DNA of 8,325 nucleotides from a virus (Duplodnaviria > Heunggongvirae > Uroviricota > Caudoviricetes). Below are positions 1 through 8,325 of this stretch, in pieces (position 1 is the stretch's first letter; each line of letters begins with the position of its first letter). Under the pieces are notes generated by a model, which did not search any database, was not told the origin of the DNA, and saw only the letters and a program-made list of their open reading frames with translations. The position numbers and the translations under genes were made by a program. The stretch spans positions 1 to 8,325 of IMG/VR virus record IMGVR_UViG_2609460221_000006; one strand, given 5' to 3'.

Positions 1-907
1 GTGCATCATCTAACGGGATTTCATCGGTCATAATGGCAGATTGCGCTTCGCGTGATTGCTTAAGCCACCATTTAATGGTGTCCCGATCAATGACTCCGCC
101 AGCAGTTTCCAGATCGATAGTCTTACTAAATTCCGGTCCCATATCTCCGGTTTGCGGATCGAAAAATATTGCACCTATTGAGATAATCGGGGCATCTGGA
201 TTTTTTCCCATGGTTTCAAGGTCGATCATTAGATGGTCACACGTCCCGCTGGTGGATGTGCCTTTATGATGACCGTTCACCTTAACTGAGTGATCTGTCG
301 CCTCGCCAGTTTCACTATCGCTATCGTGATGCTGATTGCCGCCAGGGTTCTCCTTGTGTGGATGTTCAGTGCCTTCCATTTCCTCCGGATCATTTTCCTG
401 AACTTCAACCTGATTCTCTTCATTGAATGTTTCCTGGTATGTTGCGTCGCCCATCACCGCGCCACAATCAGGGCAGTTGCCGCCGCCGGTCTGACCGCAG
501 GCGGTGCAGATCTTTTCCGGTTCCTGTTGCACTACTGGTTCAGGTTGTTTCGTTTCTGGCTCGTTTTGTAACGCATTTGGGCTGTTTTGTTCCGCTTTCT
601 GGCCGTTCTGTTCCGTTTCTTGCTGGTTCTGGTTCACAGAATCGCGGGTTTCCATCCCCTTGACCCATTTCGGATCATTCGGGTCGCTAATCCCTGCAAC
701 AAATTCTCCGCGAGAGGCCGCAAGCAACTTATCGGCGTCAGGCTGGCTGATATTGGCTGCCTGCATAATTTTGTTTACTTCGTCAGCGGTAACTTTTACC
801 TGATTAACCGGATCTATCTGTGCCTGAGTATCCAGCGATTGCGTGTCCTGGCGATGTTCAGTTGTATTCGGCTCCATTGCTTCAGTCGTTGCCTGTTCAT
901 CTGCCAT
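1..907 (-). CDS. recE: RecE-family exonuclease VIII, downstream portion (partial, runs off the window; separated from the N-terminal ORF by a frameshift)
   Basis: Minus-strand frame open from ATG 907 to position 1, translating [30 protein letters not shown]...[30 protein letters not shown]...[16 protein letters not shown]... The [10 protein letters not shown] / [13 protein letters not shown] blocks match what I recall of the middle of E. coli RecE. The same frame is open upstream across the stop of the 936-2144 ORF. Confidence 0.6.
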
Positions 908-935
908 TGCGTCAGACGGTTGTGATTTTTCCTCA

Positions 936-2144
936 TTAATTTTTTTCTTCTTCTGTTTCGCGTTCAGCAGCCAGTTCGCGGTTAACTTCTTCCAGGATAT
1001 CTTTTTCCGGTGTATGTCGTGCAGCAGCGAGAGTTTCCTCGGTAGGGTTCTCGTGATCAGTTTCCGTCAAATAGGCGTTGATATACCCCTGAAGGCGTCC
1101 CGGGTAGTGATAAAATTCAGGGTGTGCGCTTCGGATAAGTGCAAAAATAGCGGCGCGGGAATAATCCAGGATACCCGGGATTGCGCGAAGTGCTGCGGAC
1201 CATTCTTTGAACGGACTTTCTTTCTTCCGGACGACTTCTTTTGCGCGACGATAAACGCTGCCCGGAATTTCATAAATATTAAAATCCATCGGAAGTGTGG
1301 CCGCTGCAATCTCCACATCCAGCGTATCGAAGGTGTGTACTAAATTCGGATTGCGATCGGTTTTGTTCCCTCCACCGGCATTAGCACCGGAAGCCGTGCG
1401 GGTGATGCGTGAAACACGATTTCCTTTCATCCACTCTTTTGTCAGCAGACCGCGATCGGTGTAGTCAGCGCCCAGGTATGCTTCGAAAAAAGCAGTCATC
1501 AGTCCCAGGTCTGAATTACCAGGATTAGGGAAAACTTTGTCCGTGTCACGAACCAGTTTGTGGAGATCGCGAATTTCCAGCGGTTCGAGTTGCGCTGCTT
1601 TATTTGAGATGGCCAGCGCGGTAACGGCGGGAAGTTTTTCATCCTGTGCGTTATGTAATGTGCGCAGTTCGTCCCGCGAAACGTGTGTGATCGGTTTTTC
1701 GCTGCCGTGCTGTGCCAGCCATCGAACAGGCAGAATCTGACCTGAAACCGGCAGGAGCATGTTCTCCTCAATCTCAGCCATGTCTTCGCCGTTGACGTTG
1801 GTATTGTCAGTGCTGGCTGGTTTATCCTGAACAGAGGGCGAGGGCGCGATAAGTACCATTGTGATACCATCTTCACCGCCCTTTTCGTATCGGTTGCAGA
1901 ATTCGGTATCAAACACGCCTTCCGGAGGAAGGTCATTCACAACGGGTAAATGGACGCGAACAGGTTTTTTAAAATCCTCTTTGTCAAATCCGGCATCGTC
2001 CATTGCGACAACACCGCGTGATATTGCAACCGATAATTTTTTTGCTGTGCGCCAGTAAAAACCGCCTTTAATTCCAAGACGTTTTCTGATTTTGTCATTT
2101 TTGGCTTCGTAATATAGTGCAATTTCTTCTTTATCAGTGCTCAT
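936..2144 (-). CDS. recE: RecE-family exonuclease VIII, N-terminal 402 aa (ends at TAA 936-938, probably prematurely)
   Basis: 402-aa ORF with blocks [111 protein letters not shown], recalled as the RecE N-terminal region. GAGG Shine-Dalgarno 8 nt upstream of ATG 2144. Confidence 0.8.
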
Positions 2145-2221
2145 TGATAAACCTCATTACAGATTTAAGGGTGAACAAATCCCTGCCATTGCTGGCATAT
2201 AAAAATGAAACCGGATATTAA

Positions 2222-2425
2222 TTACGGTGCTGTTTTAAGCCCCGCCGGGATTTCGTTATTGTCCATGTGAATAACTTTATCGACCGGATAACAGTTGCCG
2301 GGAATTTTCTGTTCCGCTGCGGCAGCCATGCATTCTTTCATTGAGTTGTACATGCCGGTGATTGCATCAAGCGACTCACCAGTATTGAGATGTACAGTCA
2401 GAATGAGTACGAATAATGTGTTCAT
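2222..2425 (-). CDS. Small hydrophobic protein, 67 aa, YdfD-like by position (tentative)
   Basis: ATG at 2425 overlaps the dicB stop (ATGA coupling); GGAGA Shine-Dalgarno upstream. N-terminal hydrophobic segment MNTLFVLILTVHL. Its position directly after dicB corresponds to ydfD in the Qin dicB operon; sequence identity to YdfD is not verified. Confidence 0.5.
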   Translation of the reverse strand: MNTLFVLILTVHLNTGESLDAITGMYNSMKECMAAAAEQKIPGNCYPVDKVIHMDNNEIPAGLKTAP

Positions 2426-2610
2426 CGCCACTCTCCGAAAATACCGAGTTTAAGAAGGGCAATTCTGGAGAGTATGGAATTGTCATTCAGCAGGTAGGGT
2501 TCATATTTTCTCATATTGATTGCATCCTCGGTGAAATCCCTGTTACTGAGCAGAACACCAATATTAAAGCACCCGTCAGACGTATTAACGTTTGGTAGTG
2601 ACGTTTCCAT
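2422..2610 (-). CDS. dicB: Cell-division inhibitor DicB homologue, 62 aa
   Basis: Translation METSLPNVNTSDGCFNIGVLLSNRDFTEDAINMRKYEPYLL... matches the recalled DicB signature (LPNVNTSEGCFEIGV...FTEDAINKRK) at the same 62-aa length. GAGGA Shine-Dalgarno 7 nt upstream of ATG 2610; lies just downstream of DicF as in Qin. The ORF track's longer 97-aa version (to 2715) has no support for its N-terminal extension. Confidence 0.8.
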   Translation of the reverse strand: METSLPNVNTSDGCFNIGVLLSNRDFTEDAINMRKYEPYLLNDNSILSRIALLKLGIFGEWR

Positions 2611-2779
2611 TATCGCGTCCTCAACAATGAATTTTGTGATGCGGTGCCTGGTGCCTCCAGGTGACGTTAACCAGTTAACAATTAACGCCGGATACAGAGA
2701 ATCCACCCATAACACTGTTTTTGGTTTTAACTGTTCCGCGTGCGCTCAGCCGCATTCACCACATCACAAAATTCACTTT

Positions 2780-2822
2780 AAAAAGGGCGGCAGAGCAGTC
2801 ACGGAGTAAAACTGATACCGCC
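2780..2822 (-). terminator. Intrinsic terminator hairpin forming the 3' end of DicF
   Basis: Minus strand GGCGGTATCAG...CTGCTCTGCCGCC stem-loop followed by a run of 5 U (plus-strand A 2780-2784). Probably leaky, since dicB lies downstream in the same operon. Confidence 0.6.
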
Positions 2823-2837
2823 AAAAGTCACCAGAAA
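2785..2837 (-). ncRNA. dicF: DicF small RNA (Hfq-dependent ftsZ-targeting sRNA processed from the dicB operon transcript)
   Basis: Minus-strand sequence TTTCTGGTGACTTTTGGCGGTATCAGTTTTACTCCGTGACTGCTCTGCCGCCC followed by TTTTT, matching the 53-nt DicF as I recall it apart from one possible substitution. Ends in a GGCGG...CCGCC hairpin plus U-tract. The 5' end is processed, so it is approximate. Confidence 0.85.
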
Positions 2838-3172
2838 ATTGATAACAGAGGGCGTTGCAGCGGAGTTGTCACTTAAGCGTATGGTCAACCTGACAACCCG
2901 GTGTCCTCAACGGGGGAAGGAATAACCCCGCCATACTTACCGCCGCGCCATTTCGCGGATTGCCACAACCGGAAGCGCACGGTCGACGAAAATTTAACGA
3001 CAGGCTATCTATGAACCAGCTACCTCGCCGTGCGCTTTCGCGTTATGGTCTGACTTTTCAGGGAAATATCCTTTCAGTAAACTGTCAGTGCCGGATGCTC
3101 ACCCGTGTCCGGCGCACGCACTCCACCTCACCCGTGGAGAACTCCTTAATCACCAACCCTCAGGAGGGTGAA

Positions 3173-3448
3173 ATGTCGACTGAAAATGATGAAATCATTA
3201 ACTCCCTGATACGCCAGATTAATAATTTTGATAAAGCATTGCAACATGCTGCGGCGCGTAGTGATATAACTCTTTTAGCAATTTCATTTCTTGCATCTGT
3301 TATGGATAAAAATGAAGTCGTACGACAGAGTCTTGTTGATTATATCGACTCGCTTCAACCCGGCACTTTCAATCATGAGAGCTTCAATCATGAGAAAGAG
3401 CATGTTAAGTCTGTAATTAATTCTCTTATTTTGAATCAAAAGAATTAA
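3173..3448 (+). CDS. Hypothetical protein, 91 aa, in an AT-rich island (unknown function)
   Basis: Strong Shine-Dalgarno CAGGAGGGTGAA directly before ATG 3173. The in-frame upstream part of the ORF-track call (2960-3172) is GC-rich with no RBS and is rejected. Base composition drops sharply at 3173. Predicted mildly acidic and helical, with an FNHES-FNHE tandem repeat; no motif I recognise. Confidence 0.6.
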   Translation: MSTENDEIINSLIRQINNFDKALQHAAARSDITLLAISFLASVMDKNEVVRQSLVDYIDSLQPGTFNHESFNHEKEHVKSVINSLILNQKN

Positions 3449-3746
3449 TGCTTTTTGTTGCAAAGTAATTTTCAAGGGGTTCTATTCGAATCCCTTTCTT
3501 TTTCATTAACAAGCCAAACCCCTTATCAATGATGTCCATTAGATCCAGGAAGTATTTTTCATGTAAATCCTGGTTATCAGAGAGCTGCTTCTCTTCGTAC
3601 AGCCCGATAAAGGCTCGGCGTACGTTACCGGATATATTGTCGATGGTTTCTTTTTCTACGGTACTCAGGTCAAGAGTCGCCAGTTGAGAGCGAACCACAT
3701 TCGATGCCATTTCCTGGAATGGTACTGGTAAATCTTTAAATTCCAT
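3426..3746 (-). CDS. Hypothetical protein, 106 aa, in the AT-rich island (unknown function)
   Basis: ATG 3746 is preceded by GAGGT at good spacing. An alternative ATG at 3758 overlaps the upstream gene's stop (TGATG) and gives 110 aa. Co-oriented with the dicB operon, convergent with 3173-3448 and overlapping its 3' end by 23 bp. Acidic, helical, no recognisable catalytic motif. Confidence 0.6.
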   Translation of the reverse strand: MEFKDLPVPFQEMASNVVRSQLATLDLSTVEKETIDNISGNVRRAFIGLYEEKQLSDNQDLHEKYFLDLMDIIDKGFGLLMKKKGIRIEPLENYFATKSINSFDSK

Positions 3747-3757
3747 CGTCAACCTCA

Positions 3758-3910
3758 TCAGTCAGTGTTTCTGGTTAACCAGCGACGCGCGCCAGCTTCA
3801 GTTTTAAACGTTTTGCTTCTGGTATATGTCATCGCGGTAAACGTGCCGTCCTGGTTGGGAAACACGCCGCATACCAGAGATTCGTTGTTGCCAAGCTCGA
3901 TAGTATCCAT
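3758..3910 (-). CDS. Small protein, 50 aa, YdfA-like (DUF1391-like, tentative); first gene of the leftward operon
   Basis: ATG 3910 has a GAGGT Shine-Dalgarno 5 nt upstream. The longest ORF starts at 3991 (77 aa) but with a weaker RBS. Product MDTIELGNNESLVCGVFPNQDGTFTAMTYTRSKTFKTEAGARRWL resembles, from memory, the ~51-aa YdfA that heads the Qin dicB operon. Confidence 0.5.
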   Translation of the reverse strand: MDTIELGNNESLVCGVFPNQDGTFTAMTYTRSKTFKTEAGARRWLTRNTD

Positions 3911-4091
3911 GCTGACCTCATTTCCCCTTAACGCCGGGGTAGCGGAACAAAAACCTGCTGCATAGTTATTAAAGTTGAACCCTGCCGTCATGTTCTTACG
4001 CCTCGGGCTGGCTACTTAACCCCTGACCACTGCCGGGTAACTCGAAGTATTGCCTGGCGTTCTGTGGGGCGGGGTGGGTTGATGAATGAAC

Positions 4092-4131
4092 AATACCACT
4101 ACTATTTAATTATGTAAATAGCAGTGCTATT
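4092..4131. promoter_or_regulatory. Leftward (PL-like) operator region: two copies of a 16-bp AAATAG-N4-G(C/G)TATT site in opposite orientations
   Basis: 4116-4131 is AAATAGCAGTGCTATT on the plus strand; 4092-4107 reads AAATAGTAGTGGTATT on the minus strand. Together they form a 30-bp near-palindrome (4097-4126). The same motif occurs twice in the repressor/cro intergenic region. Lies upstream of the leftward operon, with TTTACA / TATTGT-like hexamers nearby on the minus strand. Confidence 0.45.
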
Positions 4132-4142
4132 ATCGTGGCAAG

Positions 4143-4164
4143 AAAAAAAACCACCCGAAGGTGG
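4143..4164 (-). terminator. Rho-independent terminator ending the paaR2-paaA2-parE2 operon
   Basis: Minus strand CCACC-TTCG-GGTGG hairpin immediately followed by 8 U (plus-strand A 4143-4150), 17 nt downstream of the parE stop. Confidence 0.7.
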
Positions 4165-4180
4165 TTGTTGACAGGAAGGA

Positions 4181-4471
4181 TTAACAGGTTTTGTTTGGAT
4201 ACTGTCTTCGTGAGTGAACTACATTTACGATCTCGATGTTAGATGCTGTTACTCGGTAAAGTATTATGTAGTTAGGATGAGTCACTATCTCACGAAGACT
4301 TGGAACTCTTTCGCTCGGTGGGTACAGATAAGGGTGTTCAGTAAGTGACAAAACTGATGTTTCAATGCGTATTTTTAGTCTACGTGCAGCGGGAGGGTTT
4401 TCCTTAGCAATATAGGCTACGATCTGACGTAAATCATCACGTGCAGAAGGTAGCCATAAAATGGGCAGCAT
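4181..4471 (-). CDS. parE2: ParE/RelE-family type II toxin, 96 aa (ParE2-like)
   Basis: Translation MLPILWLPSARDDLRQIVAYIAKENPPAARRL...REIVTHPNYIILYRV...IEIVNVVHSRR shows the ParE/RelE pattern. Start overlaps the stop of the upstream antitoxin ORF, a typical toxin-antitoxin arrangement. Confidence 0.85.
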   Translation of the reverse strand: MLPILWLPSARDDLRQIVAYIAKENPPAARRLKIRIETSVLSLTEHPYLYPPSERVPSLREIVTHPNYIILYRVTASNIEIVNVVHSRRQYPNKTC

Positions 4472-4662
4472 TACTCACTCCTGTTCGTTGCAGCTAATTG
4501 AGCAATAAGGTTTTCCATTTCAGCCATTACTTCGTCATGTGGAATTGCAGGACGGGGATCTGAGAGGCTTGCTGCCACTTTGGTTCGCAACCATTCGTTA
4601 TAGCTGTTTTCTTGTTCGACTGTTTCAAATTCAGAAATTATCGGGGAAAGGGCTGTACTCAT
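4471..4662 (-). CDS. paaA2: Small antitoxin, 63 aa (PaaA2-like), partner of ParE2
   Basis: 63-aa acidic ORF immediately upstream of, and coupled to, the ParE gene. GAGGAGG Shine-Dalgarno 7 nt before ATG 4662. Size and context fit the PaaA2 antitoxin of the paaR2-paaA2-parE2 module described in E. coli O157:H7 prophages; the name is by synteny and recall. Confidence 0.7.
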   Translation of the reverse strand: MSTALSPIISEFETVEQENSYNEWLRTKVAASLSDPRPAIPHDEVMAEMENLIAQLAATNRSE

Positions 4663-4679
4663 GTTTTTACCTCCTCAGA

Positions 4680-5181
4680 TTAGGCGCGACGACCCTTTTG
4701 CGCAGCTAGCCATCGCGCAACGATTTCTTCAATTGATTCTTTTTTCTCCTTCATTTCCTTAAGCATTTTCTCTTTATCTTCTTTGGGGAAAGCCCTGAAC
4801 GTCTGGAGCAAATCCCGCTCCATGGGGTCTATATTAAACGGAAGTTCGTTTTCCGATTGTTCCATATCTGCAGATATAGTGACAACATTGTCCTCCCCAG
4901 ATTCTTGGGGATACATCCTTACAATTTGTAACAACTCGGCCATATCTGGTCTGATTGACTCGGGAGGAACTTGCAGCAACCCTGCGAACTTGATAACAGC
5001 CTCAAGATTTAAAGGTGTCTGACCATTTAGATAATGGCTTACAGCTCCCTGTGTCGAAAATCCCAGAATTTCTGCCGCACGCTCTTGGGTTAACCCTAGT
5101 TGAATTTTTTTTCGCCGTCCAGATTTCTTTCAGTCTCTGGGCGGCTTGCAGGTCGATCTCTGACAGGGATTTTCTTTTCAT
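4680..5181 (-). pseudogene. paaR2: Lambda cI-like HTH repressor (PaaR2-like), reading frame broken in an A8 run
   Basis: ATG 5181 with GAAGG Shine-Dalgarno gives MKRKSLSEIDLQAAQRLKEIWTAKK, then the frame is lost in the A8 run (plus-strand T 5105-5112). The -1 frame continues (KK)IQLGLTQERAAEILGFSTQGAVSHYLNGQTPLNLEAVIKFAGLLQVPPESIRPDM... to TAA 4680. The joined N-terminus closely resembles the lambda CI N-terminal domain ([27 protein letters not shown]...). The intact-frame tail is the 4680-4979 ORF in the track. Confidence 0.75.
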
Positions 5182-5288
5182 ACCTTCAATTCTAATAAGA
5201 TTATTAATCTCTTTGAAATAGTGATGCTATTTACTTTTAAAAATAACAATGCTATTAATGATCGTGATGACATCACATGAGGTGAACA
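5182..5288. promoter_or_regulatory. Divergent promoter/operator region between the cI-like and cro-like genes (PRM/PR analogue)
   Basis: Two direct copies of the 16-bp motif, AAATAGTGATGCTATT (5216-5231) and AAATAACAATGCTATT (5241-5256), 25 bp centre to centre. A 13-bp perfect palindrome GTGATGACATCAC (5264-5276) and TAATAA-GA-TTATTA (5193-5206). Candidate rightward promoter TTTACT-N17-TATTAA. GAGGTG Shine-Dalgarno before ATG 5289. Confidence 0.55.
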
Positions 5289-5564
5289 ATGAATCTTGGA
5301 GAATATTTGCATCATTCCGGTATAACTCAGAAGCATTTTGCTGAAATTGTTGGGGTAACCCAAGGGATGGTAAGCCATGTCATTACCGGACGGGCGAAAC
5401 TTACGGGGAAAAAAATTTTACGCTGGTGCGAAGCAACAGGCTGGATAGTAACTCCGCACGAGATTGATGGCAGTACTTATCCCAACCCAACCGACGGCTT
5501 ACCTGTCGAGTATCAGGCTAACACACAACCAGAGGCGGGGGTGATTCATGAAAATCAAGCATGA
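5289..5564 (+). CDS. ydaS: Cro-like HTH DNA-binding protein, 91 aa (YdaS-like)
   Basis: HTH segment ITQKHFAEIVGVTQGMVSHVITG. Divergent from the cI-like gene across an operator-rich spacer; Shine-Dalgarno GAGGTG at 5279-5284. Confidence 0.8.
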   Translation: MNLGEYLHHSGITQKHFAEIVGVTQGMVSHVITGRAKLTGKKILRWCEATGWIVTPHEIDGSTYPNPTDGLPVEYQANTQPEAGVIHENQA

Positions 5565-5584
5565 ACACATCCGCATGGCAATGA

Positions 5585-5974
5585 ATGCCTGGGCGCATCC
5601 GGACGGCGAAAAAAGTACCGGCTGCGAAAATTACCAAAGCGTATTTCGAGCTGGGAATGACGTTCCCGGAACTGTATGACGACAGCCATCCGGAAGCCCT
5701 GGCCCGTAATACCCAGAAAATTTTCCGTTGGCTGGATAAAGACACCCCTGATGCTGTTGAAAAAATGCAGGCTCTGTTACCGGCGATCGAAAAGGCGATG
5801 CCGCCTTTGCTGGTGGCCCGTATGCGCAGCCACAGTTCTGAATATTACCGTGAGATCGTCGAACGGAGGGATCGGCTGGTGAAGGATGTCGATGATTTTG
5901 TTGCGTCAGCGGTTGTTTTGTATGACCAGATGAATCGCGGCGGCCCGGCAGGGAATGCTGTGGTGATGCACTAA
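5585..5974 (+). CDS. ydaT: YdaT-like (CII-analogue) protein; longest intact frame shown, native start probably ATG 5548 with a frameshift in an A6 run
   Basis: The 129-aa ORF from ATG 5585 has no Shine-Dalgarno and begins right after an in-frame TGA. ATG 5548 has a strong GAGGCGGGGG RBS and overlaps the cro-like stop; it encodes MKIKHEHIRMAMNAWAHPDGEK and then leaves the frame at the A6 run 5609-5614. One A fewer would give a ~140-aa product, the size I recall for YdaT. The gene name is by synteny with Rac ydaS-ydaT. Confidence 0.6.
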   Translation: MPGRIRTAKKVPAAKITKAYFELGMTFPELYDDSHPEALARNTQKIFRWLDKDTPDAVEKMQALLPAIEKAMPPLLVARMRSHSSEYYREIVERRDRLVKDVDDFVASAVVLYDQMNRGGPAGNAVVMH

Positions 5975-5996
5975 AAGCACGGTGTTCGGGGGTTTT

Positions 5997-6959
5997 ATGA
6001 GCAGCAAGCTTCATGGTCTTGTCTGGGAAGGGTGCGCCTTCACCGGCATGATCTTATCCAGGGTGGCGGTTATGGCCCGTCTTGCAGACTACAGCAATGA
6101 CGAGGGCGTGTCATGGCCTGCCATTGAAACTATCCGGCGTCAGATCGGTGCAAGAAGTGAATCCACAGTGAAATCGGCTATTGCAGAACTGGCGAAAGAG
6201 GGCTGGCTGACGAAGGAAGAGCGTAAGGTCGGTGGGCGTAATGTAAGCAATATCTATCGGCTTAATGTGGAAAAACTCGAAGCAGCTGCGGCGGCGGCGC
6301 GTGAGTCATATAAACCGAAAAGAAAAATTAGCCCGGCAAAAAATGACCCGTTAACAGTTGACCCGTCAAATATTGCCCCCTCAACGGTTGACCCGTCAAA
6401 TTTTGATGGATCAACTGTTGATAAAAAACTGCCGATTAGGGGGGCGATGATTGACCCCGATCCGTCAGTATTAAAACCTGATCCGTCAGATAAAAGATCT
6501 TCTTGTCCGGACGCTTCGCAACCGGACCCGCAGACGGCTGAACAGGATTTTTTAACCCGACACCCTGACGCGGTTGTGTTCAGTGCGAAAAAACGCCAGT
6601 GGGGAAGTCAGGAAGATTTGGTGTGCGCACAGTGGATCTGGGGACGAATCGTGAGTCTTTACGAGCAGGCGGCCAGCTATGATGGCGAGATCACTAGACC
6701 GAAAGAACCCAACTGGACAGCATGGGCCAATGACGTTCGCACAATGCGGATGCTGGATGGCAGAACTCACAGACAAATTTGTGAAATGTTTGGGCGTCTC
6801 CAGCGGGATTCGTTCTGGGTAAAAAACATCATGAGTCCGGCAAAACTCCGGGAAAAATGGGATGAACTGGTTATCCGCCTGGGGCGTTCGCCTGCGCAGC
6901 GTTGCGTGAATCACATTTCTGAACCGGACACTGAAATACCGCCGGGATTCAGGGGGTGA
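5997..6959 (+). CDS. Replication initiator, lambda O analogue (YdaU-like), with origin iterons inside the gene
   Basis: 321-aa ORF from ATG 5997 (GGGGG upstream); GTG 5982 is an alternative start. N-terminal winged-helix-like region ...VSWPAIETIRRQIGARSESTVKSAIAELAKEGWL. The central coding region carries tandem DNA repeats that encode the repeated TVDPSN / DPS peptides. Sits between the cII-like gene and the DnaC-like loader. Confidence 0.7.
   Translation: MSSKLHGLVWEGCAFTGMILSRVAVMARLADYSNDEGVSWPAIETIRRQIGARSESTVKSAIAELAKEGWLTKEERKVGGRNVSNIYRLNVEKLEAAAAAARESYKPKRKISPAKNDPLTVDPSNIAPSTVDPSNFDGSTVDKKLPIRGAMIDPDPSVLKPDPSDKRSSCPDASQPDPQTAEQDFLTRHPDAVVFSAKKRQWGSQEDLVCAQWIWGRIVSLYEQAASYDGEITRPKEPNWTAWANDVRTMRMLDGRTHRQICEMFGRLQRDSFWVKNIMSPAKLREKWDELVIRLGRSPAQRCVNHISEPDTEIPPGFRG
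6356..6489. repeat. Iteron cluster: putative replication origin within the O-like gene
   Basis: AGTTGACCCGTCAAAT at 6356-6371 and GGTTGACCCGTCAAAT at 6386-6401 (each containing the inverted pair TTGAC/GTCAA), TGTTGATAAAAAA at 6417-6429, and GATCCGTCAG at 6458-6467 and 6480-6489. Iterons inside the initiator gene are the lambda ori arrangement. Confidence 0.55.
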
Positions 6960-6965
6960 CGTGTC

Positions 6966-7712
6966 ATGAAAAACATTGCGGCAGTTGGGGTTCTTGAACG
7001 TATTCGCAGACTTGCACCACAGGGGTCGGTTCCACCGTACCGGACGGTGGAGGAGTGGCGGGAATGGCAACTTGCTGAAGGACGAAAACGCAGCGAGGAG
7101 ATTAACCGCCAGAATCGCCAGTTGCGGGTGGAAAAAATCCTGAATCGTTCGGGCATCCAGCCTCTGCACAGCAAATGCTCGTTTGCAAATTATCAGGTGC
7201 AGAACGACGGGCAAAAATACGCGCTGAGCCAGGCCAAATCCATAGCTGACGAACTGATGACCGGGTGCACGAATTTTGTGTTCAGCGGTAAAACCGGCAC
7301 CGGGAAAAATCACCTTGCAGCGGCGATGGGCAACCGGCTGATGGTGAAGGGGCGCAGCGTGATTATCGTCACCGTGTCTGACGTCATGAGCGTGTTGCAT
7401 GACAGCTACGACAACGGCAAATCCGGGGAAAAATTTTTACAGGAGCTTTGCGGGGTTGATTTGCTGGTCCTGGATGAAATAGGCGTTCAGCGGGAGACGA
7501 AAAACGAGCAGGTGGTATTGCACCAGATAATTGATCGCCGGACAGCATCACTGTGCAGTGTCGGGATGTTAACAAACCTGAATCATGCCGCAATGAGTAC
7601 GCTTCTTGGTGAGAGGATTATGGACCGCATGACCATGAACGGTGGTCGATGGGTGACGTTTAACTGGGATAGCTGGCGTCCAAATGTCAGCAATATGAGG
7701 GTTGTGAAGTAA
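6966..7712 (+). CDS. ydaV: DnaC-like helicase loader / IstB-like AAA+ ATPase, 248 aa (YdaV-like)
   Basis: Walker A FSGKTGTGKNHLAAAMG and Walker B DLLVLDEIG. AGGGGG Shine-Dalgarno before ATG 6966, which follows the O-like stop by 6 nt. Confidence 0.85.
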   Translation: MKNIAAVGVLERIRRLAPQGSVPPYRTVEEWREWQLAEGRKRSEEINRQNRQLRVEKILNRSGIQPLHSKCSFANYQVQNDGQKYALSQAKSIADELMTGCTNFVFSGKTGTGKNHLAAAMGNRLMVKGRSVIIVTVSDVMSVLHDSYDNGKSGEKFLQELCGVDLLVLDEIGVQRETKNEQVVLHQIIDRRTASLCSVGMLTNLNHAAMSTLLGERIMDRMTMNGGRWVTFNWDSWRPNVSNMRVVK

Positions 7713-7733
7713 TTTTGTCCGGAGGAAATTTTA

Positions 7734-8325
7734 ATGGAAACCGTATCTGACGCACTGAAAGCACTGAAAAAAGCCTCTTCACATGTGGTGGCAGCTCGCC
7801 TTGGAATCAGTCGTGAAGAGGCTGTCAACGAGCTGTGGGAACTCAAAAGAAAAGGCGTCGTTGATAAAACTGGTCACACCTGGTTTCTGGCTGGCGAAGG
7901 TGAATCCCGGGTAACCGAAGAGCGGCCAGTAAAATCTGAAGCACAGGATATGCTGACCGGGGAGGTCGAACAAAAAGTTACCGCAGACATGATGATTGAG
8001 TTTATCGGTCAGGATGGGGCTAAAACGTGTGAGGAACTGGCGGGTAAGTTCAGTGTCAGTACTCGCAAGGTTGCTTCCACGCTGGCGGTGGTAACCGCAA
8101 CGGGGCGGCTGGCACGCGTTAATCAGAACGGTAAATTTCGTTACTGCATGCCGGGCGATAATTTACCAGCAGAGCCGAAAGCCGCGCTGGTAACGGAAAG
8201 TGATGGTAAGGCCTTTCCTCAGCCAGCAGGTGCTGCGTTACCAGTCCGGGAAGCCGCAACACAGGAAGAAATTAAAACAGAAACTGTGGCGGACATTGTG
8301 CAGCCGTTGCCATCGTTTACCGAAA
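7734..8325 (+). CDS. Hypothetical prophage protein, partial (runs off the right edge), with two winged-helix-like segments
   Basis: GGAGGA Shine-Dalgarno 7 nt before ATG 7734; frame open to the window end (197 codons), so it is absent from the ORF track. Translation METVSDALKALKKASSHVVAARLGISREEAVNELWELKRKGVVDK...CEELAGKFSVSTRKVASTLAVVTATGRLARV. Corresponds in position to the gene after ydaV in Rac. Confidence 0.6.
   Translation, partial: METVSDALKALKKASSHVVAARLGISREEAVNELWELKRKGVVDKTGHTWFLAGEGESRVTEERPVKSEAQDMLTGEVEQKVTADMMIEFIGQDGAKTCEELAGKFSVSTRKVASTLAVVTATGRLARVNQNGKFRYCMPGDNLPAEPKAALVTESDGKAFPQPAGAALPVREAATQEEIKTETVADIVQPLPSFTE

Follow-up and report, generated by a model that had tools for sequence, protein, structure and literature searches.

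The three-component module paaR2-paaA2-parE2 (RAE2) lies together with ydaS-ydaT in the immunity region of the cryptic prophage CP-933P/Sp12 of Escherichia coli O157:H7, and the structures 5CW7, 3ZBE and 7NKV are available for its components (PMC8630535). Jurenas et al. described the module and the way it is coupled to immunity in 2021 (PMC8630535), citing earlier work for the three-component system. The toxin-antitoxin (TA) pair of CP-933P takes the place of rexA/rexB (PMC8630535; PMC9986795, the YdaT structure paper), and a second homologue of the module is present in the O157:H7 prophage CP-933M (PMC8630535). Here we analyzed a region of the same kind, in which a cI-like repressor gene is followed by paaA- and parE-type genes, in the IMG/VR virus record IMGVR_UViG_2609460221_000006 (Caudoviricetes). 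Positions 1 to 8,325 of this record were studied, and this whole 8,325-nt stretch is called the window below.

The properties of the homologue have been partly described. PaaA2 is degraded by ClpAP and ClpXP; ParE2 induces the SOS response, and PaaA2 counteracts it (PMC8630535). Loss of the locus leads to post-segregational killing, plasmid stabilisation has also been published, and the stabilisation of the prophage or its immunity region by addiction has been proposed (PMC8630535).

The region is best explained, with a probability of roughly 0.8, as belonging to a lambdoid (Rac/CP-933P-like) prophage of E. coli, of which it is the immunity region and in which it carries an allele of the known repressor-PaaA-ParE module; the extra base that interrupts the repressor gene is most likely an error in the sequence. 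The kind of system, the comparison with rexAB and the addiction hypothesis are already published.

The toxin-antitoxin genes

The original prediction, made from the letters of the DNA, proposed a 63-aa antitoxin and a ParE-family toxin with overlapping stop and start, and both open reading frames (ORFs) are present. They overlap by one base, the stop codon TAA and the start codon ATG forming TAATG on the minus strand. The paaA gene is preceded by a strong Shine-Dalgarno sequence (GGAGG), and 17 nt separate its ATG from the stop codon of the repressor gene (4680-4682). The predicted ParE/RelE homology was borne out by the profile search: ParE matched Pfam ParE_toxin (PF05016) at 6.6e-18 with 65.5 bits, the cut-off being 23, and its residues 4-91 cover positions 1-89 of the 89 in the profile. 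Residues 1-92 also matched the crystallised O157:H7 ParE2 (PDB 5cw7_B, E 5.2e-36). In the case of PaaA, matches were obtained with Pfam PaaA2 (PF21217; 1e-21, 77.1 bits, cut-off 27), NCBIfam NF050103 (92.8 bits, cut-off 50) and the PaaA2 chains in the PDB (3zbe, E 2.1e-22; also 5cw7). PaaA2 is the sole Pfam domain of the 63-aa protein, in which no helix-turn-helix (HTH), ribbon-helix-helix or AbrB match was found at E<=0.01.

An O157:H7 genome (L037) yielded the canonical PaaR2-PaaA2-ParE2 locus, in which the repressor begins with MQKKE as published and ParE2 agrees with the PDB chain over the whole aligned stretch. When the window was aligned with the published proteins, the global identity was found to be 62% between ParE and ParE2 and 62% between PaaA and PaaA2, whereas PaaR2 aligned with the repressor only over its C-terminal 44 aa, at 55% identity. 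The corresponding values for the second O157:H7 copy (L003) are 84% for ParE and 84% for PaaA. In the protein collection, the exact ParE and the exact PaaA proteins each occur on at least 1000 contigs. The ratios of nonsynonymous to synonymous substitution rates (dN/dS) relative to other alleles amount to 0.03-0.16 for parE and 0.06-0.16 for paaA, and both genes therefore appear to be maintained by purifying selection. These matches identify the 96-aa protein as a toxin of the ParE/RelE superfamily with a PaaA2-type partner, and indicate that the pair is real and intact in the window; its toxicity is predicted from the homologue.

The strong terminator expected at the end of the operon was also found: it consists of a 7-bp GC-rich stem, starting 14 nt past the parE stop, and a T-tail (Table 1). 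The length of this tail is polymorphic (4136-4143), since the plus strand shows A8 in the window, L002 and L023, and A7 in 20 other loci.

The interrupted repressor gene

The cI-like gene that was expected at the head of the operon is in place and is intact in every relative examined, but its frame is broken in the window, where its 502 nt are not a multiple of three. Three-frame translation yielded a 59-aa ORF (5181..5002) and, in another frame, a 99-aa ORF initiated by TTG (4979..4680). Relatives with the same DNA (including L001, L002, and L008) carry a 501-nt gene encoding the 166-aa HTH protein WP_000824162.1, and near-identical DNA with an intact 501-nt gene is present in the complete E. 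coli genomes of O104:H4 2009EL-2071, TUM13773, and WP4-W18-ESBL-09. The sole difference between the window and these relatives in the repressor gene is GTTGAATTTTTTTT versus GTTGATTTTTTTT at 5102/5103, an insertion which directly follows an A8 run of the mRNA. Past the shift, the earliest canonical start codon of the correct frame, the TTG at 4979, lies downstream of the HTH; therefore, a DNA-binding product cannot arise without recoding. The predicted co-transcription of the repressor with the TA pair would hold just for the restored allele of the relatives, the frame being interrupted after codon 26 in the window.

Comparisons with the closest relatives showed the same type of difference elsewhere. 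Between positions 2410 and 8325 of the window and L008, there are no substitutions and three single-base insertions (4143, 5103, and 5609), and between positions 1 and 2450 and L011 there are no substitutions and one insertion (938). Each of the four adds an A to the plus strand, and in three cases (the exonuclease gene, the repressor gene and ydaT) a gene that relatives have intact is broken. None of 5,426 complete E. coli genomes was found to have the 5103 allele, the best match differing by just that base, and the exact 35-mer carrying the frameshift was not found in IMG/VR, GTDB-representative or JGI metagenome contigs. Neither did the 59-aa, 99-aa, and 43-aa fragment products find any exact match among about 15 billion proteins. 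The frameshifted repressor allele occurs in 1 of the 29 loci (the window only) and the intact allele in the other 28; the intact 34-mer was detected in 25 IMG/VR contigs, and the intact 166-aa repressor on at least 1000 contigs of the protein collection. Since four +1 A indels with zero substitutions are the signature of consensus errors and not of divergence, the frameshift in the repressor gene is probably a sequence artefact, and the insertions in the repressor gene, ydaT and the exonuclease gene are most likely sequence error, not biology.

In the exonuclease gene, the extra A at 936-938 (CATTAATTTTTTT versus CATTATTTTTTT in L011) makes a stop codon, leaving a 402-aa ORF (936..2144) of a RecE-like exonuclease of roughly 818 aa. 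Apart from the insertion at position 938, positions 1-2450 of the window are identical to many complete genomes.

Domain architecture of the repressor

The restored repressor shows an HTH_3 match at 9.9e-10, and its residues 2-90 matched the N-terminal domain of lambda CI (1lmb, E 1.5e-9; 7jvt, also about 1e-9). The profile search yielded no match with the Peptidase_S24 domain in the restored protein. The possibility that it might be an SOS-cleavable CI was rejected, given the lack of an S24 domain and the PaaR/DicA type of the C-terminus; because the S24 autocleavage domain is missing, RecA-mediated induction would not be expected.

The C-terminal 44 aa of the restored protein are 55% identical to the C-terminus of PaaR2 (E 3e-16), while the similarity between the N-terminal DNA-binding domains of the repressor and PaaR2 (PDB 7nkv/8c3k type) is undetectable. 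Full-length orthology with PaaR2 was rejected on these grounds, the alignment being limited to the last 44 aa. Since the C-terminal parts align and the N-terminal domains do not, the sequences identify the repressor as a domain-swapped relative of PaaR2 and not as a whole-length orthologue. In addition, residues 107-162 matched the C-terminal part of the NCBIfam DicA model at 1.5e-7, with 31 bits as against a family cut-off of 101. The C-terminal helical domain (residues about 107-166; window 4680-4860) is common to the 123-, 132/133- and 166-aa repressor classes and DicA. Because this domain is shared by the classes and their N-terminal DNA-binding domains differ, recombination between immunity types seems to have its boundary within the repressor gene.

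A terminator-like site at 4855..4839 was rejected: its 5-bp stem lies in the coding sequence of the repressor gene and was taken to be due to chance.

Table 1. Features of the immunity region (positions are those of the window).
Feature	Position	Strand	Characteristics
OL (left operator) and PL-like (leftward) promoter	4090..4131		Predicted operators 4092-4106 and 4117-4131; minus-strand promoter match 4118..4090, TTTACA-17-TATTGT
Intrinsic terminator of the operon	4139..4166	minus	Hairpin AACCACC-TTCG-GGTGGTT at 4166..4149 followed by T8
parE-family toxin gene	4181..4471	minus	96 aa, intact; Pfam, PDB, dN/dS
paaA-type antitoxin gene	4471..4662	minus	63 aa, intact; Pfam, PDB, NCBIfam, dN/dS
Repressor gene (CI analogue, PaaR/DicA-type C-terminus)	4680..5181	minus	502 nt, frameshifted; restored product 166 aa
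Extra base in the repressor gene	5102..5103		Plus-strand AA, relatives A; frame shifts after codon 26
PRM-like promoter (repressor maintenance)	5189..5217	minus	TTCAAA-17-TAGAAT, predicted
OR (right operator), two predicted 15-bp pseudo-palindromic operators	5217..5256		AATAGTGATGCTATT (5217-5231) and AATAACAATGCTATT (5242-5256), 25 bp apart
ydaS-type Cro analogue	5289..5564	plus	91 aa, divergent from the repressor gene; HTH_3 9.4e-6; phrog_35 transcriptional repressor 3.6e-20
Probable YdaT operator (OM-like), ydaS/ydaT junction	5541..5558	plus	GTGATTCATGAAAATCAA; position and homology
ydaT, CII analogue	5548..5974	plus	Frameshifted in the window; restored 141 aa; Pfam YdaT_toxin 2.2e-10; phrog_163 CII-like activator 2.9e-36

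Promoters, operators and the ydaS-ydaT genes

The -10 hexamer of the predicted PRM-like promoter ends 7 nt before the repressor ATG (5181), a spacing which implies that the repressor mRNA may be leaderless; leaderless translation has been demonstrated in the case of paaR2, and lambda cI is a known example (PMC8630535). The 107-bp gap between the repressor ATG and the ydaS ATG (5289) contains OR. The two OL copies of the operator are located just past the parE terminator with the same 25-bp spacing as the OR pair, so that the predicted repressor operators flank the operon on both sides, and promoter-like matches overlap both clusters. The pattern AATAGYRNTGCTATT gave eight strand-matches at four sites as against 0.14 expected, a number reached in 0 of 200 shuffles, and the sites were also recovered as the repeat families D1, D2, I1, I5, and I6.

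The ydaS product is only 21% identical to the YdaS of CP-933P, which is consistent with a different immunity specificity, while the restored YdaT is 99% identical to its CP-933P counterpart. The frameshift in ydaT, an A6 run at 5604-5609 which is A5 in relatives, replaces the 141-aa frame with ORFs of 43 aa and 129 aa. The A6 allele also occurs in E. coli ISC41 (L009) and in an SRA assembly (L010), both of which carry a different, S24-type repressor and lack the TA pair. The sequence GTGATTCATGAAAATCAA at the ydaS/ydaT junction shows one mismatch to the published TTGATT-N6-AATCAA, and the footprinted YdaT operator of CP-933P, TTGATTCATGAAAATCAA, is found at the equivalent position. The pattern match alone was not significant (34/200 shuffles); in view of its position and its homology with CP-933P, the site was accepted as a probable YdaT operator.

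Comparison with related immunity regions

The original prediction had matched the layout to paaR2-paaA2-parE2, and the order, the layout and the TA homology do agree with that module, although the homology of the repressor with PaaR2 is confined to the C-terminal segment. Gene order and orientation are those of CP-933P; as there, a DNA-binding domain is missing from the antitoxin, the toxin is of the ParE family and start and stop overlap; a repressor without an S24 peptidase occupies the cI position, ydaS/ydaT are divergent, operators are present at OR and OL, and the YdaT operator is conserved. The OL of the window with its PL-like promoter is analogous to PL933P/OL (PMC8630535). The two regions differ in the size of the repressor (166 aa in the window, 123 aa in the case of PaaR2) and in its HTH, which is lambda-CI-like in the window, whereas the N-terminal domain of PaaR2 is of the 7NKV type. 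The operators also differ, with AATAGYRNTGCTATT in the window and a GTTTAGTAA half-site consensus of 18-bp palindromes in CP-933P, the OR sequence being unrelated, and the repressor gene and ydaT are frameshifted in the window. Since the repressor's DNA-binding domain, the operators and the Cro analogue differ, the sequences identify the module as a heteroimmune variant of the CP-933P type.

The second O157:H7 copy (L003), the repressor of which has 133 aa, might correspond to the homologue in CP-933M. It carries the closest TA alleles of any characterised strain within the same architecture, and the C-terminal domain of its repressor is shared with that of the window (47% over 87 aa). By contrast, the N-terminal domains differ, and the global identity is only 33% between the repressors and 38% between the Cro analogues.

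As in lambda cI-rexA-rexB, a repressor expressed in lysogeny and two accessory genes would lie between OR/PRM and OL/PL, so that the TA pair is in the rexAB place, as first proposed and in line with the literature (PMC8630535; PMC9986795). The N-terminal domain of the repressor is homologous to that of CI, and, as in lambda, a leaderless start is likely. Unlike in lambda, the cargo is a ParE-type TA pair and not RexAB, the S24 domain is lacking, and two operators were detected on each side, where lambda has three. The match with DicA of the Qin prophage is limited to the C-terminal region and the same cI-like position; the N-terminal domain differs, and Qin has no downstream paaA-parE.

Proposed working of the module

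By analogy with the published homologue, the intact form would be transcribed from the PRM-like promoter as one leaderless mRNA encoding the three proteins and ending at the strong terminator. In the repressor, a linker joins an HTH domain of the lambda-CI type to a C-terminal helical domain of the PaaR/DicA type, and the protein would bind the four 15-bp operators (two at OR and two at OL) bracketing the operon. If its action resembles that of PaaR2, both the divergent ydaS-ydaT operon and the PL-like promoter would be silenced by it, and YdaS would in turn repress the repressor promoter, giving a bistable switch. YdaT might activate a PRE-like promoter (repressor establishment) at the ydaS/ydaT junction, which would also feed the repressor-TA operon. 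Because PaaA cannot bind DNA, the transcription of the TA genes would be slaved to the prophage switch rather than autoregulated by the antitoxin.

If PaaA and ParE resemble PaaA2 and ParE2, the antitoxin would be labile and the toxin stable and DNA-damaging, and the cell would be killed or arrested on losing the immunity region, which amounts to addiction to, or stabilisation of, this part of the prophage. The stabilising role that the original prediction attached to the linkage of the TA pair with the immunity gene is the same as the published proposal. Its further suggestion that loss of the repressor might be coupled to growth arrest finds no support in CP-933P, where neither transcriptional state of the switch activated ParE2 (PMC8630535).

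Points against this explanation and alternatives

Several points weigh against the explanation adopted here. The repressor has only 44 residues in common with PaaR2, so its regulation may differ from that of the published system. The AlphaFold single-sequence model of the restored repressor, with a mean predicted local distance difference test (pLDDT) value of 47.6, was too poor for a fold search and served for no more than a rough helix pattern. Two of the insertions recur in independent assemblies, namely A8 at 4143 (L002 and L023) and A6 in ydaT (L009 and L010), and homopolymer length at these two sites may be natural variation. It is also conceivable, although unlikely, that the frameshift in the repressor gene is a genuine private mutation.

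If the frameshifts were real, the window might belong to a decaying cryptic prophage in which the repressor gene, ydaT and the exonuclease gene are pseudogenes and PaaA-ParE is kept as an addictive pair, transcribed from the unregulated PRM-like promoter or from an internal one. The persistence of intact TA genes beside three frameshifted neighbours would fit this scenario, as would the presence of the ydaT A6 allele in two unrelated assemblies and a promoter-like match within the repressor gene (4885..4856); the module has been called addictive in the literature, and decay is common in cryptic prophages. We nevertheless consider decay improbable. Four indels with zero substitutions relative to the closest relatives look like errors and not like evolution, and the repressor allele is unique among all the sequences searched. 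Loss of the sole repressor should, moreover, de-repress the intact O-like/DnaC-like replication genes and the dicB/kil-type genes on the PL side, which would presumably be harmful.

Another alternative, which is compatible with the preferred explanation, is that the TA pair serves mainly in anti-phage exclusion (abortive infection) from the lysogenic operon, as with rexAB, stabilisation being secondary. The position of the pair between the repressor gene and OL/PL is identical to that of rexAB, and its expression would accompany that of the lysogeny repressor; among prophage TA systems, many are known to act in defence. On the other hand, no match was obtained with any of the 5,027 PADLOC defence models and the literature searched describes no defence phenotype, and the phenotypes published for the homologue are plasmid stabilisation and post-segregational killing, with no activation of ParE2 in either switch state. 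Exclusion as the main role is therefore doubtful.

Lastly, it is most improbable that the extra base is genuine and is bypassed by RNA polymerase slippage on the A8 run (GCG AAA AAA AAU UCA), one A being dropped in some transcripts to give a full-length N26I repressor and a stochastic repressor level and switch: slippage during the transcription of long A/T runs is an established phenomenon of bacteria, the run abuts the insertion and the -1 frame thereafter reads AKKIQLGLTQERAAEILG and on to the normal stop, but A8 is among the shortest runs on which slippage is efficient, conservation would be expected of a recoding site in use and yet the allele is unique, and the intact allele has the A8 run too and needs no recoding. 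If it were true, immunity and PaaA-ParE transcription would be stochastic or phase-variable in the strain.

Distribution and mosaic context

Six annotated E. coli loci, the repressors of which measure 123, 132-133 or 166 aa, show the arrangement of repressor-paaA-parE divergent from ydaS-ydaT. In all 23 of the 23 IMG/VR contigs extending past the 166-aa repressor gene, PaaA and ParE are encoded directly downstream. The TA DNA gave blastn matches in 842 of the 5,426 complete E. coli genomes, and about 70 of the 5,426 carry a match covering at least 80% of this 1.2-kb region. Among 50,697 phage records, ParE of the window type was found in one, that of Escherichia phage Evi. The Evi ParE (L038 2501-2776; LR597642.1 24917-25192) is unannotated and shows 65% identity, and its gene lies downstream of an annotated regulator gene of the 123-aa class and a 63-aa hypothetical gene.

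The window is a mosaic with joints at about 2410 and about 5541. Over positions 1-2450 the window is identical to prophages with a different immunity region, in strains such as 7/2 (L011); positions 2410-8325 match L008, and the YdaT operator at the ydaS/ydaT junction marks the exact point from which the sequence resembles CP-933P. The best coverage of the window by any complete RefSeq E. coli genome is at most 86%. On the PL side, the DicF antisense small RNA was identified at full length at 2785-2836 on the minus strand (Rfam RF00039, 75.8 bits, gathering score 48), upstream of dicB (about 2422-2610, minus) and a DUF1482 gene (2222-2431, minus), which is the usual PL-side division-inhibition cluster of Qin/Rac-like prophages. 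Between the DUF1391 gene (3758-3991, minus) and DicF, two ORFs encoding 110 aa (3426-3758, minus) and 162 aa (2960-3448, plus) gave no Pfam match, and relatives annotate hypothetical proteins at the same positions.

Significance

The significance of these findings beyond annotation is small. The repressor gene, ydaT and the exonuclease gene look like pseudogenes in this window, and they illustrate that such an appearance can be due to sequence artefacts, for which a check is advisable ahead of any interpretation. The class of 166-aa repressors with a lambda-CI-like N-terminal domain appears to be uncharacterised yet common. At least three classes of repressor are accompanied by the same TA cassette; they have a common C-terminal domain but differ in DNA-binding domain, operators and Cro analogue. 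The TA pair is therefore linked to the C-terminal half of the repressor and not to any one immunity specificity.

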